Positions 37,835 to 45,912 are shown, counted from the first letter of the stretch. The stretch is DNA of 64,000 nt from an uncultured archaeon (GCA_964354495.1 CAYHAA010000002.1:80234-144233); one strand, 5' to 3'. Notes: a model not told the origin generated them from the sequence alone. A program made the numbers and translations.

Positions 37835-38323
37835 ATGGGGATGATGGAGGAGCGAAACGTGTCAGAAGAAAAAATGACGATTGAAGAATTCCACAAGAGA
37901 ATGGCTATCAATACGAATAACGGCATCTGGCCTATCCTAGATAAATCAGCGCCCACGAAAGATGAGCTCGAAGAGGCACTTCATATGGCACACACGTCTC
38001 TCTATCATTGGAGTGAGGTGGGTCAGCCGATCAATATTGCGCGAGCAGAATACATGGTTTCACGAGTCTACTGTGCCTTCTCATGGGCAGAGCCTGCGCT
38101 CTATCACGCTCAGAGATGTCTCAAACTTACTGAGGAGATAGGAACTGGCGACTTCGACCTAGCTTTCGCATACGAAGTAATGACCCGGGCATATTCGGTG
38201 GCAGGAGAGAAAGCAAGGTGCAAGAAGTATCGAGCCCTCACGCAGAAGGCCACAGATGCAGTAAAGAATGAAGAGGACCGTAAGATCTGCCAAGCGGAGC
38301 TTGATAAGATCAAATGCAGCTAG
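37835..38323 (+). CDS. Hypothetical soluble alpha-helical protein
   Basis: 162 aa with no motifs recognised. Its 3' end overlaps the long-ORF version of the PhzF gene. Confidence 0.3.
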   Translation: MGMMEERNVSEEKMTIEEFHKRMAINTNNGIWPILDKSAPTKDELEEALHMAHTSLYHWSEVGQPINIARAEYMVSRVYCAFSWAEPALYHAQRCLKLTEEIGTGDFDLAFAYEVMTRAYSVAGEKARCKKYRALTQKATDAVKNEEDRKICQAELDKIKCS

Positions 38324-38378
38324 TCGCGCAACTTTCGCTTGCGGAGTTTTCATAAGGGCGCCTTGTACCAAATCCACC

Positions 38379-39308
38379 ATGCGAAATATCCCGTATGTTC
38401 AGACAAGTGTATTTGTGGACGACAAGTATCCCTTTGGTGGGAATCAACTTGCCACCTTCTGGGATGCTACTCTCAACAAGCGACTAACTCTTGAGATGAT
38501 GCAGGGGATTGCGCTTGAGCTCAATTTCTCGGAAACCACATTCCTAGAAGAACCGACAATCAAGGGGTGCGCTTCAAAGATTCGGATCTTCACTCCAGGC
38601 AGCGAACTTGAATTCGCAGGGCATCCAACTTTAGGCTCTTCTTTTGTAATGATGCACAAAGGAATCGTAGCAGCCTCGCAGAAGAGTGCAGTCGTGCAGC
38701 TTGGGATTGGCCCTATTCGTGTTGACTTTCAACCAGATAGTCATGTTAGGATGACACAACCGTCACCCACTTTCTTGGAGGAAGTAGAAGAAGCATCACC
38801 CATTACAAGCGCTCTTGGACTCGACCCCCTGGATGTTTCGGATGCTTTCCCCATACAGGTGGTTTCAACCGGATTTCCATTTCTCATCGTTCCGCTGAAG
38901 AAGCTCTCTGCTGTGCAGAAGGCAGCGCCGAATGCCCAAATGATAATGAATAATCTTAAGGGCTTGCCAAGCTCAGAGGTCCTCATCTTCTCGACTGAAA
39001 CTGTACATCCCAACAATGACGTGCACGCAAGAATGTTCGCGCCCGATGTTGGAGTTCTTGAGGACCCAGCAACAGGAAGTGCTGCAGGACCCTTGGGAGC
39101 ATACCTCGAGAAGTATAATGTTCTAGACAAACATACCTTTGGTGAGTCCATACAGATAGAGCAGGGTTACGAGGTCAGAAGACCCAGCAAATTGACAGTG
39201 AAGGTACCTAGTGAAAAAATGGAAGAGGTATTCGTCTCGGGAAAAGTCAGGCTAGTTGCAGAAGGGACATTGTTCCTTCCGCAAAAGATGTTGCCTCCCT
39301 CCGAATAA
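38379..39308 (+). CDS. PhzF-family isomerase (phenazine biosynthesis PhzF-like)
   Basis: N-terminal block YVQTSVFVDDKYPFGGNQLATF and overall DAP-epimerase-like two-domain length. The start is set at MRNIPYV; the track ORF begins earlier at 38268. Confidence 0.65.
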   Translation: MRNIPYVQTSVFVDDKYPFGGNQLATFWDATLNKRLTLEMMQGIALELNFSETTFLEEPTIKGCASKIRIFTPGSELEFAGHPTLGSSFVMMHKGIVAASQKSAVVQLGIGPIRVDFQPDSHVRMTQPSPTFLEEVEEASPITSALGLDPLDVSDAFPIQVVSTGFPFLIVPLKKLSAVQKAAPNAQMIMNNLKGLPSSEVLIFSTETVHPNNDVHARMFAPDVGVLEDPATGSAAGPLGAYLEKYNVLDKHTFGESIQIEQGYEVRRPSKLTVKVPSEKMEEVFVSGKVRLVAEGTLFLPQKMLPPSE

Positions 39309-39337: not shown

Positions 39338-39898
39338 TTGGAGCTGCAAGACTTGACTACACGCAATCCAATCTTTAAGGTAGCATTGATTGGAGAAGGT
39401 GGCGTCGGAAAGACAAGCCTAGCTGTACGTTACACTGAAGACCGATTCGACCAGCAGATGAAAATGACGATTGGTGTGAACTTCGCTACCAAGAGAGTCA
39501 ATGTCGCTGGTACTGACCTGACCCTCCTCATTTGGGACTTGGGCGGACAACCTAGATTCCAAGATGTGGTCATGGACTACTTCAAGGGTTCAAAACTAGG
39601 AATTGCGGTCTACGAGGTTAGCAGGTCTTTCACCATGTACAGGCTCGATAATTGGATTGCAAAGCTTCACAACAGTGTCCCCAACTGCGATATCTTTCTT
39701 GTAGGCAACAAGATCGATGAGCGTCTTCCGGGGATGGGAGTGACAAAAGAAGAGGCTCAGCAATTCGCGGATCAGTACCATGCTCAAGTCTTCGAAGTAT
39801 CAGCAAAGACAGGGGAGGGTGTAAGCCAGATGTTCGAGGCAGCAGGCAAAGTTCTCTCAGAGCGAAGCACTAAAACTAGTTCCGGAGTTGAACACTGA
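39338..39898 (+). CDS. Rab/Ras-like small GTPase
   Basis: G1 GEGGVGKTS, switch-I T in TIGVNF (a RabF1-like IGVxF), G3 WDLGGQ, G4 GNKID and G5 SAKTGEGV. There is no C-terminal Cys prenylation motif. Confidence 0.8.
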   Translation: MELQDLTTRNPIFKVALIGEGGVGKTSLAVRYTEDRFDQQMKMTIGVNFATKRVNVAGTDLTLLIWDLGGQPRFQDVVMDYFKGSKLGIAVYEVSRSFTMYRLDNWIAKLHNSVPNCDIFLVGNKIDERLPGMGVTKEEAQQFADQYHAQVFEVSAKTGEGVSQMFEAAGKVLSERSTKTSSGVEH

Positions 39899-39994
39899 GT
39901 CAATCCTGAATCGATTTGTACGCAGTATCATTAAATATCGCCTAGTATTCCTTAATCAAGGACCACTAGCAGATCGCAAGACGGAGACCTAGGC

Positions 39995-40255
39995 TTGGCA
40001 AAAGTGAAACTCAGACCGTTTGCTTGTCCCTCCTGTGGGCAAGGCAAACTGGTCTATGTGGAAGTCGATGAATTGACTATCACAAGAGCGAAACGGTTTC
40101 CAACCATCGTGCAAGCCAAGTGTGGAAAGGGCCATCCTTTGGTTGTCTTTGTCGATGCGAACTTTCAAGTTCGAGATGTCGAAGCTTCAGCTGTGGCGAC
40201 GGAAGAGGAAAAAGACGCAGTCGAGAAGACAAAGGGCTGGTTCGAGTCATTCTAG
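39995..40255 (+). CDS. Small Zn-ribbon protein
   Basis: CPSCGQ...(27 aa)...CGKGH four-ligand zinc ribbon and an acidic C-terminus, at 86 aa. Confidence 0.4.
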   Translation: MAKVKLRPFACPSCGQGKLVYVEVDELTITRAKRFPTIVQAKCGKGHPLVVFVDANFQVRDVEASAVATEEEKDAVEKTKGWFESF

Positions 40256-40420
40256 TCGTGAGATGCTACGAGGTTCAAGAGGCAGTGGAAAACGAATGGC
40301 ATGTGCCACTACGTGGGCATTTCGTTGCTTACGAATGGAAGTCTAGTGTTACGCTCGGACTCGAACACGAAGCTCCATGGTGCAGACGTGGATAGCACAT
40401 GGTAACGGGGACTAAACACG

Positions 40421-40855
40421 ATGTATGGAATCTTCGTCATCAATGATGCGGGTGAAACAATCGCTTCCGTAGGATGGGAGAACCTCGAAGGCGACACGGC
40501 ACTTATTGGTGGATTTGTCTCGGCACTACAGATGTTCATCAAGAAGATTTCCGGAAACGAGATGAACGAACTCCTTTTTGGCGAACTCAAGTTGCTTATC
40601 GGAAAAGCTGGAGACAACTATATTGTGACACTGCACTCGGTTGATGACAAAGAAGCCAAAGCCCACAATCGAGAGGTCATCAAATTCGTCACTGAACGGG
40701 GTGACGAGATCGATGACGGTGTTCTCATCTTGGTCAACGAGATGATATCCGGTGAAACTACTCCTGAGGAAGAAGAGAAGGTGCGTCGCGGCGTACGCGA
40801 ATGGACAAGCGGAGCAGGTACGGCTGCAAAAGAGTGGGGAAAGAAGGTGTTTTAG
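40421..40855 (+). CDS. Roadblock/LC7 (MglB-like) or longin-like domain protein
   Basis: The segment GIFVINDAGETIASVGWEN...DTALIGGFVSALQMF...GELKLLIGKAGDNYIVTLHSV matches the roadblock alpha-beta-alpha pattern. It is followed by an acidic or Lys-rich tail. Confidence 0.5.
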   Translation: MYGIFVINDAGETIASVGWENLEGDTALIGGFVSALQMFIKKISGNEMNELLFGELKLLIGKAGDNYIVTLHSVDDKEAKAHNREVIKFVTERGDEIDDGVLILVNEMISGETTPEEEEKVRRGVREWTSGAGTAAKEWGKKVF

Positions 40856-40867
40856 GAGGACAAGTTC

Positions 40868-42283
40868 ATGGAAGTATACGAGATAGCATATGTGTTTCTT
40901 GGACTGGCAACATTAGTGGCCGCTGGAACCATTATTAACTATAGTCACAAGAGATCCGTAGCATCTCCGGACCCTGAGATTAAGAAAGCCTTCAGACCGC
41001 TCTATATCTTCGCCATCGGTCTAATCGTTTTTGGAATTGGAGCTCTGCTTACATTCCTCGTGCGCAACAATCAGATTTTCCCATGGGATGATACTTCTTT
41101 CGTCAGATTGCATAATCCGTACCTGAGATATTACACGATATTCTATGTATTCACTCTTGTTGAGTTGTTCTTCCTGACTATCGCAGCTGCGATGATTCTG
41201 AAACAATGGTTGATTTCTGTATTCATGGCCATTATGATTCTTATTGCGTTTCTTCTAATCTTCAATGCTGTTCTAATCGTCGAAGACATGAGAACAAGCA
41301 ATGTGGCGGAATTCTATATCAATTTTGGTAACGTATTGAGTATAATTCTGCTATCTGCAAATGCTGCCCTTTTTTCATGGATAGCAAATGATACAAGAAG
41401 GAGCACTAGCATGGCATTGGGCTACGCTATGATTGTGCAAGTCCTAGCAGTTCCACGTTTCTATGCAATACTGCCAACAGAACTGATATTCGCAATTACT
41501 GTCTTCGCACTTATGGGTCCAGCAATGATTGCTTTTGCGTTTCTGCGGCCGGACCAGAAGATATCAGTTGAACTCCTTGGTTATGGCGCCAGCTTTGCTG
41601 GGCCGGTTGTCATCTTCGCCAGTCTCATTTCGGCAGAACTTATCTCTAATCCCTTTATTGTTATTATAGCAGTATTTGGAGCAATAGCTATTGCCTTGGC
41701 GACTGGAACAGCTTCATACGCCTATGGCAGGTGGAGAGAGACTCGTCAGCTGCCTACAGCATTACTGATGGTCATCTTCGCAGCTATAGCGGCAGGACAA
41801 ATGATTGGCATGTTGGGTACCTTTCAGGTACTGCCGAACCTATGGTCAATTTACTTTGATTTTGCCGTGACTTCCTTTGCACTGGCTGTTTTCACATCTG
41901 TGGGAATCATGGCAGCCGGATATCGCACCTTGGCGTCATTACCCCTACTAGTCTATCTGCCAACAGCGATACTCATTACTCAACGCTTTCCGAATTCAAT
42001 CAGCCAGGCGTTTCTTGATTACGCCTATCTCGCAATTCCGGCGATGCTGTTCTTCTTCGTACCAGTGTTCCTTTTTGCAGGAGCTTGGAGGAGAATGAAG
42101 AAAGCTGGAACTGCTGGGAGAATGAGACCACTGGGGATGTCGGTTGGATTATTGCTGTTCTTAATAATCAGAGTCGCTTCTCTTCTCGCCGACATTCAAT
42201 TTGGAGATCCTGGTTACGGATTGGTGGCAATTGCGCTTGCAGTCCTCTGGTTGTCAATCACTGGCAGACTCGATAGATACTAG
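40868..42283 (+). CDS. Large polytopic membrane protein (about 12-14 TM), hypothetical
   Basis: Hydrophobic throughout. It starts 12 bp after the roadblock-like gene stop on the same strand. Confidence 0.45.
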   Translation: MEVYEIAYVFLGLATLVAAGTIINYSHKRSVASPDPEIKKAFRPLYIFAIGLIVFGIGALLTFLVRNNQIFPWDDTSFVRLHNPYLRYYTIFYVFTLVELFFLTIAAAMILKQWLISVFMAIMILIAFLLIFNAVLIVEDMRTSNVAEFYINFGNVLSIILLSANAALFSWIANDTRRSTSMALGYAMIVQVLAVPRFYAILPTELIFAITVFALMGPAMIAFAFLRPDQKISVELLGYGASFAGPVVIFASLISAELISNPFIVIIAVFGAIAIALATGTASYAYGRWRETRQLPTALLMVIFAAIAAGQMIGMLGTFQVLPNLWSIYFDFAVTSFALAVFTSVGIMAAGYRTLASLPLLVYLPTAILITQRFPNSISQAFLDYAYLAIPAMLFFFVPVFLFAGAWRRMKKAGTAGRMRPLGMSVGLLLFLIIRVASLLADIQFGDPGYGLVAIALAVLWLSITGRLDRY

Positions 42284-42401
42284 TACGAAGCATAGTGCCG
42301 TTCTGTCTCTCATGACTTGGATGGCGTGATAGCCTGCACTCATCTTTCAGAGAACTCTAGAAACAAACGTATTTCTACTCTAATATGAGAGAAAGTATGC
42401 T

Positions 42402-43169
42402 ATGCAATTCGAGAGTATCGTCATCAGAGTCTTTGATGCTGATTTCATGTTCTTCGACCTTGCATTGACCGGGCTCTGGATTCTTCTACTCTACAAGAAG
42501 GGTCTCATAGTACCGTTACTATTCGGCTTCTTTGGAATCTTAGTGAATTTCATCGTTGACTATTTCTACTGGTACAGCATTCTTGGCATTCGAACAGTTG
42601 AGGGGTTGCCAAGTTGGATGTCGCCATTGGGTTTTTTCGTGTACTTCTCAATCACATATGGCATGATACAATACTCATATGTCCAGGTCATGTTCATACG
42701 TAGACCTGAGCAACCAAGGACTGAAAGGGAAAATCGAATAAAGTGGTCACTATTCCTCTTCACAGGTTGGCTTGCAATAGGTCTTCTATCGAACGTTATC
42801 CCAATCAACGATTCCGAAGTGACAGTAGCACGAGTCATGACGGAACAACGAATCACTGAGGTCTATGCTGTCATTGCTGAATACGCTCTATTGTTCCTAC
42901 TAGCAGTCAAGAAGAAATTCGAACTGAGTCCTAAGCGGATGTTGTATGTTTTTCTTGTCGGTATCTTTGTTCACTTCTCCATGGAGATTACTCTTGTACT
43001 GTCTGGAATGAGGGCATCAAGCGTCTTTGACATTCTCTTCAATAGCGTCTTTGAGTTCAACACCGGAACACCAATCCTCTATCTCATGATGTTTGCACTC
43101 ATCTCCTGCGTTGAGAAACTCAAAAAGAGGACTCCTCAGGGCTTACCGACAGAGTCTAGGAGACATTGA
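42402..43169 (+). CDS. Hypothetical integral membrane protein (about 7 TM)
   Basis: Multiple hydrophobic helices. It is co-oriented with the GTPase/roadblock genes. Confidence 0.4.
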   Translation: MQFESIVIRVFDADFMFFDLALTGLWILLLYKKGLIVPLLFGFFGILVNFIVDYFYWYSILGIRTVEGLPSWMSPLGFFVYFSITYGMIQYSYVQVMFIRRPEQPRTERENRIKWSLFLFTGWLAIGLLSNVIPINDSEVTVARVMTEQRITEVYAVIAEYALLFLLAVKKKFELSPKRMLYVFLVGIFVHFSMEITLVLSGMRASSVFDILFNSVFEFNTGTPILYLMMFALISCVEKLKKRTPQGLPTESRRH

Positions 43170-43266: not shown

Positions 43267-45912
43267 TCAGTCCCTGAAATCTTGATTCTCATATTCATTG
43301 GGATCGGCATCAAAGGTTGTCTTGCAGTATGGGCTGCAGAAGTAGTACTTCTTCCCCTTGTACTCACTAGTCAGTGATGCGCTGGCAATCTCGACATCCA
43401 TCTTACATATTGGGTCTATCGCTACTTTGGGTACATTCGGCACAGTCTGTTTCTCTCCCGGAACATCAACTATGTCTTTTGGTTCAAAACGCCCAAGTAG
43501 TAGAGCATTAGATACAACGCTCACACTTGACAGTGCCATTGCGAGACCCGCGAACTCAGGTCGAAGCGCAAGTCCAGTGAATGGAAAGAAGACACCTGCT
43601 GCGACGGGCACCAAAATCATGTTGTAAATGAGGGCCCAGAAGAAACCTTGGCGGATCTTTGAAACAGTTCTTCGACCCAGCTCAATACCTGATACGACAT
43701 CGGTCAGTTCATTGCGAACCAGGACTATGTCACCAGTTTCGACTGAAACATCGGTCCCCGAACCAAGAGCTATTCCGACATCTGCCTGAGCAAGAGCAGG
43801 AGCGTCATTGACACCGTCTCCTACAAAGGCCACTGTCTTGCCCTCATCTTGAAGTCTTTTGACATTCTCAGCTTTCTCGCTTGGAAGAACCTCGAAGAGG
43901 ACGTTGGAAATACCAAGTCTCTCAGCAATTGCGTATGCTGTTCGCTTCTTGTCTCCTGTTATCATCCATATCTCTATGCCAAGTTGCTTCAACGCATCGA
44001 TGGCATACGTTGAGCTTGACTTTAACGGATCAGATATTGCAGCAAGAGCCAATGCACTCGAATCTGCCGCAGCAAAGACCGTTGTCTTGGCTTGTTTTTC
44101 TAGCTCCTCTGCGTGAGTTTCAAGCTGGCTGATATCCACTCCGTTTTCGTTCATGAAACGACTGCTGCCCACAAGAACTGTTATTCCATTGATTATCGAA
44201 GTCACACCCCGGCCAGAATGCGATTGAAATTCCATCGGTTTTGTAATATGAACATCCATCTCCTCTGCATAGCGCACAATTGCCTCAGCAAGGGGATGCT
44301 CACTTCCTTTCTCAACAGAAGCCATGAGCGCGAGCGCGTCCTCGCTCTTCACTTTCGGTGCCGTGATGAAGTCAGTCACAGCAGGTCGTCCAATGGTCAG
44401 AGTTCCTGTCTTATCGAAGACAATCGTATCAATGTTAGGAATTGTCTCTAGCCCTGCTCCATTCTTAATGAGAATACCATTCTGAGCCCCCTTCCCAAGG
44501 CCGACCATGATTGCAGTTGGTGTCGCAAGACCCAATGCACAAGGACATGCTGCGACAATGACAGCAGTTGTGAAATTGAGGGCAACGTCCCAAGTTACAC
44601 CGCCCAAGAATACCCATCCAAGAAATGTAGCCAACCCGATTATGAGAACAATTGGCACAAAGTACTCTGCTATAGCATCAGCTTTCCGTTGAATTGGAGG
44701 TTTTTGTGTTTGGGCCTCCTCGACTAAACGGACTATCTGTGAGAGTGCAGTGTCTTGTCCGACCTTCGTAGCTCTAATCCGGAGCAAGCCGTTCTTGTTA
44801 ATTGTAGCTCCGATCACCTGGTCGCCAATATTCTTCTCCACCGGAATTGATTCACCAGTGATCATCGACTCATCAACCGATGACTTGCCTTCAGAGACTT
44901 GACCATCAACAGGGATTTTGTCGCCAGGTTTGATGACCAATAGATCCCCGACTTCAACATCCTCTGCTGGGATGGTAACCTCCTCCCCATTCCTAATAAC
45001 CACAGCAACTGTGGCTTGAAGGTCCATTAGACTACGTATCGCTATTGAGGTTCTTCCTTTCGCATATGCCTCTAGCCACCTGCCAAGAAGAATGAAGGTG
45101 ATTAGCGCAGCTGATGTATCATAGAACGACATGTAGCCCGTGAGAAAGAATGTTGCAGCCACTGAATAGAAATATGCAACACTCGTTCCAAGCATGATGA
45201 GAGTATCCATGTTCGTCTTGCCATGAACTAGTGCTCTGAAACTGGACCGATAGAATGGATAACCTGCAATGAACTGAATCGGTGTCGCAAGAATGAACAT
45301 GATCAGGTCCAAAGGAAGTCCGGCGGGAAGGAGTGCACTTCCGAAAGTCATGAACATAATCGGAATAGTGAGAATGAGCGCGAAGACAAACCGGTATTTG
45401 AAATACTTAATCTCTTCTTCCCTTGCAAGGGTCTCCCTATCGACACCCGAAACTGTACTTTCTCCAATTTCGAATCCTAATGAATGCAATTGGCGGCGCA
45501 CAATCTTGGGAGTCAATAGGTCTTCATCATACTCTACAAGGACACGGCCTGACTCCGAGTATGTACTCACTGATATTGCACCAGTAAGAGCTTCTATCGA
45601 CTCAGCAATCCCATTCCATTGGCCATCTCTGGGAGCAGGCTCAAGCGTGAGAGTCATCACAGAGCGTTTTGCGCGGTAGCCGCTGGATTCGACAGCTCTC
45701 TCCAATGCGGATCTGTCAGTCTTCGCTGACTCGAACTCAACCACTGCCTTCTCATCCAAGAGGCTGACTGTTGCATGTATGACTCCATCCTGACTCATCA
45801 GCGATTTCTCAACGGTAGCTACACAAGATGCACAATGCATGCCTTCAATCTTCATGGATATGCGTTCTTTGCCATCACCGACTGTAGTCTGCGCGCTCAT
45901 GATATCGTCCAC
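43267..45912 (-). CDS. copA: Cu+-translocating P1B-type ATPase with an N-terminal HMA domain, a degenerate second HMA-like domain and a C-terminal TRASH/YHS-type metal-binding domain
   Basis: GMHCASC metal-binding site, CPC transmembrane motif [16 protein letters not shown] phosphorylation site and GDGVNDAP hinge. The C-terminus has CKMDVE...YYFCSPYC, a TRASH/YHS-like motif. Confidence 0.85.

Follow-up and report, generated by a model that had tools for sequence, protein, structure and literature searches.

A conserved four-gene cassette of Thorarchaeota that probably encodes a membrane-anchored small-GTPase switch

Introduction

Which regulator acts on which small GTPase, and at which membrane, in Asgard archaea? 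Asgard genomes encode dozens of small GTPases together with many roadblock and longin proteins, and matching regulator, GTPase and membrane is difficult, because the genes are usually scattered. A locus that raises this question lies in a 64,000-nucleotide stretch of Thorarchaeota DNA (GCA_964354495.1 CAYHAA010000002.1:80234-144233; hereafter, the window). Here, genes for a Rab-like GTPase of 186 amino acids (aa), a zinc-ribbon-like protein (ZnR, 86 aa), a longin-fold protein (144 aa) and a polytopic membrane protein (471 aa; the TM protein, for its transmembrane (TM) helices) follow one another on the same strand (Table 1). A first-pass annotation of the window had described them as a module of five genes between positions 39338 and 43169, the fifth encoding a second membrane protein of 255 aa. 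All five co-oriented open reading frames (ORFs) are indeed present on the + strand at these positions; the module itself held for the first four genes, which form its core, and neither the 255-aa protein nor PhzF, the product of the gene preceding that of the GTPase, could be retained as a member.

Dimers of longin or roadblock proteins act as platforms, mainly as guanine nucleotide exchange factors (GEFs) and sometimes as GTPase-activating proteins (GAPs) (PMC10933270). In MK-D1, GTPase genes as a rule do not share an operon with a roadblock, longin or TRAPPC3 gene, so that it is difficult to match GTPases to their regulators (Tran et al., PMC10933270). Similarly, most genes for Asgard eukaryotic signature proteins lie outside conserved neighbourhoods, the named exceptions being ESCRT and an operon of LAMTOR1-like, Rab-like and DENN genes (Liu et al., bioRxiv 10.1101/2020.10.19.343400). 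The first-pass annotation had regarded clusters of GTPase and regulator genes as a typical Asgard feature, which both of these studies contradict. As such clusters are rare in Asgard archaea according to the literature, the cassette is more unusual than was first assumed. Full-text literature searches returned no prior description of it, although supplementary tables may contain it as unannotated asCOGs.

Results and Discussion

The four genes behave as an evolutionary unit

We retrieved related loci via the longin protein, taking one genome per GTDB species, which gave 21 species-representative loci. The order GTPase-ZnR-longin-TM was found in 19 of them and was incomplete only at contig ends; further metagenome loci agree with it. 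Thus, the synteny that the first-pass annotation had proposed to look for in related genomes exists: the order is conserved across Thorarchaeota, with differing flanks. Because the flanks differ between subfamilies while the four genes stay together, these genes represent a conserved unit.

The cassettes fall into at least four divergent subfamilies, at least three of type I (A, B and C) and type II, with identities between TM proteins down to 18%. In the most divergent cassettes, which are those of type II (L031, L033 and L034), homologues of all four genes are present in the permuted order ZnR-longin-TM-GTPase, the TM proteins being about 25% and the longin proteins 24-30% identical. The genes of these cassettes are separated by 1-26 bp in L031 and L034, with a gap of 97 bp between the TM and GTPase genes in L033. 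Gaps of 1-26 bp are also typical of subfamily C, and the spacer between the longin and TM genes is about 12 bp long in most loci of all type-I subfamilies.

Some metagenome-assembled genomes (MAGs) carry paralogous cassettes: two in DZ1M.409 (L016 and L027) and three in DZ3S.43 (L019, L028 and L031). Pairwise distance matrices of the four proteins, calculated for 21 cassettes, correlated with one another (r=0.89-0.93, Mantel p<=0.0005), which indicates that the cassettes duplicated and diverged as whole units. Two degenerate copies were also found. In one (L030, 6001-6369), the longin gene is truncated, one ZnR cysteine is gone, and there is no TM or GTPase gene. In the other (L032, 6001-6919), the TM gene is deleted, and the longin protein and the GTPase are shortened to 103 and 115 aa, respectively, the latter having lost its P-loop. 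The components of the cassette decay together. Taken together, these loci show that the four families are passed on, copied, reordered and lost together.

Could the four genes nevertheless be chance neighbours, or share a local ancestry without any functional relationship? The gaps of 96, 165 and 118 bp in the window are not operon-tight, and the ZnR, longin and TM proteins have no family annotation, which would fit such an explanation. However, the genes stay linked in at least four subfamilies, whose TM proteins are as little as 18% identical. They do so between unrelated flanks, in either of two orders and, within single genomes, in several paralogous copies, so that the synteny effectively excludes such an explanation.

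Judged by its named members, every one of which is labelled as Thorarchaeota or generically as Asgard, the cassette is specific to Thorarchaeota. Homologues of the longin protein at 48-100% identity, including one identical database entry, all come from Thorarchaeota or generically labelled Asgard MAGs. This bears out the Asgard origin that the first-pass annotation had suspected for the window, which comes from a member of Thorarchaeota.

A Rab-like GTPase without an evident membrane anchor

The 186-aa protein matched the Pfam Ras family (PF00071) with 135.8 bits and E=1.3e-39 (cutoff 21.6), as compared with 42.1 bits (E=8.6e-11) for Arf and 27.6 bits for Gtr1_RagA. Its best matches among PDB sequences were Rab18, Rab14, Rab21, a crystallised 'Thorarchaeota Rab' (7ezb), Sec4 and Rab11. 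The motifs of the G domain are intact: G1 (GEGGVGKTS), switch I (MKMTIGVNFA), G3 (WDLGGQPRF), G4 (GNKIDER) and G5 (EVSAKTG), and T44 is conserved as well. Two stretches, IGVNF (part of switch I) and RFQDVV, resemble RabF1 and RabF3, respectively. Motifs G1 to G5 and the switch regions are near-invariant among 22 cassette orthologues, whereby the Pfam match and the retention of the motifs corroborate the first-pass assignment to the Ras superfamily with intact G1-G5 and a RabF1-like IGVxF. By these sequence features, the protein is a bona fide Rab-like small GTPase with complete catalytic motifs. It is 43.6-93% identical to cassette GTPases from elsewhere and about 34% identical to a second GTPase encoded in the window.

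The protein consists of the G domain alone and has no C-terminal roadblock domain of the Rag type. The cysteine motif for geranylgeranylation is absent from its C-terminus (...STKTSSGVEH) and likewise from those of the orthologues. No amphipathic N-terminal helix was evident when the sequence was read by eye, without scoring. Lacking both the C-terminal cysteines and an evident N-terminal amphipathic helix, the GTPase shows no obvious means of attaching itself to a membrane. As the anchor motif is absent, its recruitment to a membrane would depend on a protein partner.

A single-domain longin protein with a conserved tail

The first-pass annotation had left open whether the 144-aa protein has a roadblock/LC7 (MglB-like) or a longin fold. 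Its AF2 model comprises strands at residues 3-8 and 13-17, a helix at 26-42, strands at 49-53, 56-63 and 66-73, and helices at 79-93 and 99-109. This beta-beta-alpha-beta-beta-beta-alpha-alpha topology is that of a longin domain, and the model is structurally similar to solved longin domains. Thus, for the product of 40421-40855, structure prediction returned the longin fold, one of the two alternatives. The fold is not of the roadblock type: neither a match to Pfam Robl_LC7 nor the alpha-beta-beta-alpha-beta-beta-beta topology with its N-terminal helix was found. At the level of sequence, comparison with described longin families (Pfam Longin, Sedlin, Sybindin and Clat_adaptor_s) gave nothing below E=0.08, and a search of PDB sequences with the profile of the 144-aa protein found no longin and no link to solved structures.

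The protein is acidic (pI 4.7). An additional C-terminal helix, predicted with low confidence, ends in a conserved tail, xWGKKVF. None of the 36 invariant columns of the longin alignment (A1) is an arginine, and the protein is therefore not an arginine-finger GAP of the type of FLCN and NPRL2.

The C-termini of the longin protein and ZnR are alike. Every subfamily shows the pattern ...K-x-x-x-W-[FG]-x-x-(x)-[FL]-COOH in both proteins, and type II is no exception, the tails of L031 reading ...KAQGWMDNF and ...RAGEWASKML. This shared tail, occurring in two otherwise unrelated proteins, may be a docking or membrane-binding peptide.

A zinc-ribbon-like protein of its own family

The metal ligands C11-x2-C14 and C43-x3-H47 of ZnR are invariant in 18 aligned orthologues (alignment A4) and retained in the divergent type-II copies; ligand loss, of one cysteine, was seen only in the degenerate L030. 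With four ligands conserved in two knuckles, the 86-aa protein is probably the Zn-ribbon protein that the first-pass annotation saw in it. Two arginines, R34 and R60, are invariant in the same alignment and are also kept in type II. Other conserved elements are a block, FVDxNFQVRDVE, and the C-terminal tail DKTKxWFxS[FL].

All Pfam matches of ZnR remained below threshold. Among the 18 members, 11 matched Zn_ribbon_Brz, 7 Elf1 and 5 OapC/DUF2072 (best E=0.009), and TFIIS was also among the matches. A profile search returned 99 matches, and each of those named by taxon is labelled as Thorarchaeota or generically as Asgard; none of the 99 carries a precomputed Pfam domain, PF09845 included. We found no sequence-level link to solved structures. 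By these comparisons, ZnR represents a novel Zn-ribbon-like family.

The match to OapC deserves attention, since it brings to mind the ArvA-ArvB-ArvC system of Haloferax. In that system, one operon encodes a small GTPase, a small Zn-ribbon protein of DUF2072 and another small protein, and knock-outs alter the output of extracellular vesicles (PMC10927574). ArvC, the Zn-ribbon protein, is a proposed GAP, and its deletion leads to hypervesiculation (PMC10927574). The cassette might accordingly be a membrane-remodelling or vesiculation system, with the longin protein in the place of ArvB and the 15-helix TM protein shaping the membrane or serving as cargo component. In eukaryotes, the machineries for coats and tethers have longin domains at their core, and OapC/DUF2072 (PF09845) was the best single-family match of the ZnR of the window. 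However, this match stayed below the cutoff (16.4 bits, E=0.011, cutoff 23), and 5 of the 18 orthologues matched the family at E<1. Hence, we rejected the membership of ZnR in OapC/ArvC. Moreover, the cassette GTPase is Rab-like, as opposed to the Arf/Sar-like ArvA, and, read by eye and unscored, shows no N-terminal amphipathic helix; there is no DUF2073/ArvB homologue in the cassette, and no dedicated polytopic membrane protein in ArvABC. ArvA itself occurs in only 8 of 183 Asgard genomes (PMC10927574). On balance, a vesiculation system appears quite improbable.

A 15-helix membrane protein without described relatives

The first-pass annotation had given the large membrane protein 12-14 TM helices, whereas the structural model, which is of high confidence (predicted local distance difference test score 91.6, predicted template modelling score 0.87), has 15. 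The protein is basic (pI 9.5). Lysines and arginines account for 22 of the 78 residues in 'in' loops versus 2 of the 45 in 'out' loops, and this clear positive-inside pattern implies an external N-terminus and a cytoplasmic C-terminus. The external loops are short and variable, and conservation is highest in the cytoplasmic loops. Across 21 cassettes, the most divergent included, 26 positions are near-invariant; 12 of them fall in cytoplasmic loops, which hold 17% of the residues, and none in external loops. The cytoplasmic consensus consists of DT[RK]R.T, FL[RK]P[DE], GR[WFY]RE, WRRM...GR.RP and the C-terminal TG[RK].D, represented in the window by DTRRSTS, FLRPDQK, GRWRETRQLPT, WRRMKKAG..GR.RP and TGRLDR.

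The TM protein had no Pfam match at E<=1 and belongs to no NCBIfam family, and its profile found zero matches among PDB sequences. A Foldseek search of the PDB with the model gave nothing significant, the best match being MATE (E=0.1, TM-score 0.13) and the second LYCHOS/GPR155 (probability 0.63, TM-score 0.26, E=0.15, likewise not significant). An exhaustive profile search among 1.84 billion cluster representatives brought the family to 56 members, of which all named ones are from Thorarchaeota. Judging from these searches, the protein represents a novel membrane protein family without described relatives. An internal duplication was also considered and discarded, as hhalign detected none with four different splits.

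The protein could be a solute transporter whose activity or substrate occupancy is coupled to the GTPase via the longin platform, in a manner similar to that of SLC38A9 with Rag-Ragulator or of the FeoB G domain. It is large and polytopic, its external loops are very short, and the polar residues E99, Q191 and Q311 within the membrane are well conserved. Furthermore, two fragments bear the source annotations 'export membrane protein' and 'Na+/proline symporter', and the evidence of gene linkage would serve this explanation equally. Nevertheless, we consider it unlikely, as neither fold nor family supports it: no family match and no significant fold match to known transporter superfamilies (MFS, APC/LeuT, MATE/MOP and ABC) was obtained.

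Alternatively, the 15 helices might include one or more seven-helix bundles like those of G-protein-coupled receptors (GPCRs), and the protein might be a membrane receptor that transmits signals across the membrane to a Ras-superfamily GTPase via the longin protein as an adaptor and ZnR as a GAP. A signalling role would fit the gene neighbourhoods, since subfamily C adjoins multi-PAS/HTH (helix-turn-helix) proteins, and a variant without the GTPase adjoins a response-regulator-PAS-histidine kinase. If true, the Asgard lineage would have invented or retained an archaeal equivalent of receptor-to-G-protein coupling that is based on a small GTPase. Searches at Pfam E<=1 and of PDB sequences with the profile did not place the protein in any 7TM (GPCR-type) family, and we regard such a receptor as very unlikely.

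A membrane-anchored GTPase switch as the probable function

From the conserved linkage we infer a 'GTPase-regulated membrane machine', as did the first-pass annotation, and the cassette probably encodes a membrane-anchored small-GTPase switch that is specific to Thorarchaeota. The TM protein would be its membrane platform, and possibly also a sensor or effector. The acidic longin protein and ZnR would dock on the basic cytoplasmic loops of the TM protein, and their Trp-containing C-terminal tails may mediate this docking. The similarity of these conserved tails points to a common docking mode of the two proteins. The longin protein would bind the switch regions of its cognate Rab-like GTPase, as in the TRAPP, Mon1-Ccz1 and DENN complexes, and could thereby recruit or activate the GTPase at the membrane, in the role of a GEF or a platform. 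ZnR, with its two invariant arginines, would be a co-regulator, most plausibly a GAP, by analogy with ArfGAP zinc fingers and Haloferax ArvC. The nucleotide state of the GTPase would then gate or report the activity of the TM protein. The GEF and GAP assignments, which are drawn by analogy, are the weakest steps of this model.

Several points weigh against it. Everything beyond gene linkage is inferred. The longin protein has no catalytic signature, and no invariant arginine, that would fix its role as a GEF versus a GAP, and ZnR falls below every Pfam threshold. The correlation of the distance matrices partly reflects the shared species phylogeny. In one variant (L026), ZnR, longin and TM genes occur without an adjacent GTPase gene, and thus the GTPase is not obligatory in cis. 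Finally, the gaps of 96 and 165 bp, together with a TATA-like box that relatives have between the ZnR and longin genes, make more than one transcript possible.

If the model is true, the cassette would provide a tractable experimental model of pre-eukaryotic longin-GTPase regulation in the closest archaeal relatives of eukaryotes, and a first context for a membrane protein family without known relatives. It offers an evolutionarily validated quartet of a Rab-like GTPase, a longin protein, ZnR and a specific integral membrane protein, open to co-expression and direct assays. The quartet also bears on how a Rab-like GTPase may be recruited to a membrane without prenylation, namely via a dedicated membrane protein partner.

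Comparison with known systems

In Rag-Ragulator-SLC38A9 and LYCHOS(GPR155)-GATOR1, a polytopic lysosomal protein talks to a small GTPase via roadblock or longin platforms. The proposed logic of the cassette is the same, with a polytopic protein, a platform and a small GTPase, and LYCHOS was the second Foldseek match of the TM protein. However, the cassette GTPase is not a Rag, as it has no C-terminal roadblock domain, and the structural match to LYCHOS is not significant.

Eukaryotic longin platforms (TRAPP Bet5/Trs23, Mon1-Ccz1, DENN, FLCN-FNIP and GATOR1 NPRL2/3) are assemblies of several longin domains or subunits, whereas the cassette encodes a single longin protein of 144 aa. In the loci examined with gene tables, neither the cassette nor the flanking genes include a counterpart of the Bet3/TRAPPC3 subunit of TRAPP. 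There is no adjacent DENN gene and no sequence similarity to known longin proteins, and the conserved longin arginine of the arginine-finger GAPs FLCN, NPRL2 and SMCR8 has no invariant equivalent in the cassette protein. What further sets the cassette apart from these platforms is its coupling to a dedicated 15-helix TM protein and a Zn-ribbon protein.

Among prokaryotic systems, ArvA-ArvB-ArvC (OapABC) is similar in being a membrane-related archaeal operon of a small GTPase and two small partners, one of which is a Zn-ribbon protein and proposed GAP. It differs in that ArvA is Arf/Sar-like, ArvB is DUF2073/SepF-like and there is no polytopic component, as opposed to the Rab-like, longin and 15-helix proteins of the cassette. 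MglA-MglB, of bacteria and archaea, is likewise a prokaryotic operon in which a small, Ras-like GTPase is paired with a protein of the roadblock/longin superfamily acting on its nucleotide state, the roadblock GAP MglB, but the cassette GTPase has the canonical Rab/Ras G3 motif DxxGQ and Rab-type motifs. The Asgard LAMTOR1-like/Rab-like/DENN operon (bioRxiv 10.1101/2020.10.19.343400) represents another rare conserved linkage of a Rab-like GTPase to regulators of the roadblock superfamily and longin type. That operon occurs in most Asgard archaea and has no integral membrane component, whereas the cassette is confined to Thorarchaeota and contains no DENN or LAMTOR1-like gene. Thus, the cassette is a variation on the theme of longin or roadblock proteins with small GTPases, extended by two novel families, one of membrane proteins and one of Zn-ribbon-like proteins, and is a neighbourhood separate from those published.

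Gene boundaries and spacers

The five ORFs of the module are separated, in order, by 96, 165, 12 and 118 bp. The first-pass annotation had drawn attention to the 12-bp gap before the gene of the large membrane protein and to the PhzF stop codon 29 bp ahead of the GTPase gene, and both distances were confirmed. The former is the junction of the longin and TM genes, the tightest within the cassette of the window.

Table 1. Coordinates of the cassette, its sequence elements and neighbouring genes in the window.
Feature	Coordinates	Strand	Remark
Rab-like small GTPase, 186 aa	39338..39898	+	Pfam Ras match
Zinc-ribbon-like protein (ZnR), 86 aa	39995..40255	+	CPxC...Cx3H ligand set
ZnR C-terminal tail, ...DKTKGWFESF	40229-40252		tail of the type shared with longin
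ZnR-longin spacer, 165 nt	40256-40420
Single-domain longin-fold protein, 144 aa	40421..40855	+	predicted structure
Longin C-terminal tail, ...AAKEWGKKVF	40829-40852		tail of the type shared with ZnR
Longin-TM spacer, 12 bp	40856..40867	+	GAGGACAAGTTC, with GAGG ribosome-binding motif
Polytopic membrane protein (TM), 471 aa	40868..42283	+	15 predicted TM helices
Second membrane protein, 255 aa	42402..43169	+	about 6-7 TM helices; lineage-specific downstream neighbour or possible accessory
Membrane protein with PEN-2-like repeats, 392 aa	36630-37808	-	at least 4 tandem hairpin repeats of 2 TM helices
TPR-like protein, 162 aa	37835-38323
PhzF ORF	38268-39308		start most likely at 38379 (309 aa)
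CopA-type copper P-type ATPase	43267-45912	-
Second Rab-like GTPase, 201 aa	45992-46597	-	Pfam Ras E=3e-40

The TTG start of the GTPase gene is uncertain, and the public gene call begins 15 nt downstream, giving a protein of 181 aa. For ZnR, the public gene call is 65 aa long and would drop the conserved CPxC knuckle; the 86-aa reading is the version conserved across all orthologues. The PhzF ORF, if begun at 38268, would overlap the TPR gene, and its most likely start is the downstream one given in Table 1, as the public gene call agrees with it and tblastn matches begin at residues 23-27.

The spacer between the ZnR and longin genes is 128-197 bp long in subfamilies A and B and about 48 bp in C. 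In an alignment of this spacer (A3), a GGGGA ribosome-binding motif is conserved ahead of the longin start, and a TATA-like TAATATATGC box occurs in most relatives of subfamily A, the window and L010 being without it. An internal promoter giving a longin-TM transcript is possible. Our promoter and terminator scan used models of the bacterial type, which are uninformative for an archaeon. A structured RNA or riboswitch in the 165-nt spacer was considered and rejected, given a folding z-score of -0.18 and no Rfam match in the window. The idea of an anti-phage defence system was also dropped: PADLOC returned a single match, that of the GTPase to LeoA, which is trivially due to the P-loop.

Neighbouring genes

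PhzF was rejected as a member of the unit because only the three closest relatives (L010-L012) have it, and it is absent from L008/9, L013 and L014, where a TPR gene directly precedes the GTPase gene. The 255-aa membrane protein was rejected as a core member because of its patchy distribution and its lack of similarity to the 471-aa protein. Its homologues follow the cassette only in L006/7, L008/9, L010 and L014; the remaining subfamily-A loci lack them, as do subfamilies B and C and type II. The protein has no Pfam family.

Divergently upstream of the cassette, genes for the 392-aa PEN-2-like protein and the 162-aa TPR-like protein are conserved in subfamily A (L008-L014 and L021). The hairpin repeats of the former follow the pattern W..FF.G.[FY]..[EQ]N...LW.P, and its match to Pfam PEN-2, a subunit of gamma-secretase, lies just above the cutoff (28.1 bits, E=2.9e-6, cutoff 25). 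To our knowledge, no PEN-2-like repeat protein has previously been reported from archaea.

The gene of the second Rab-like GTPase in the window lies directly upstream of that of a CopA-type copper ATPase and in the same orientation, a pairing conserved in L008/9, L010 and L012. In subfamily C (L001/L027, L024, L025, L028 and L029), a gene for a 268-aa HTH_20-like protein lies immediately upstream of the cassette on the same strand, and a divergent gene for a multi-PAS/HTH protein of about 870 aa is also found upstream. In L026 and L030, a response-regulator-PAS-histidine kinase gene adjoins the cassette variant devoid of the GTPase, and in subfamily B the upstream gene encodes a NosD-like beta-helix protein.

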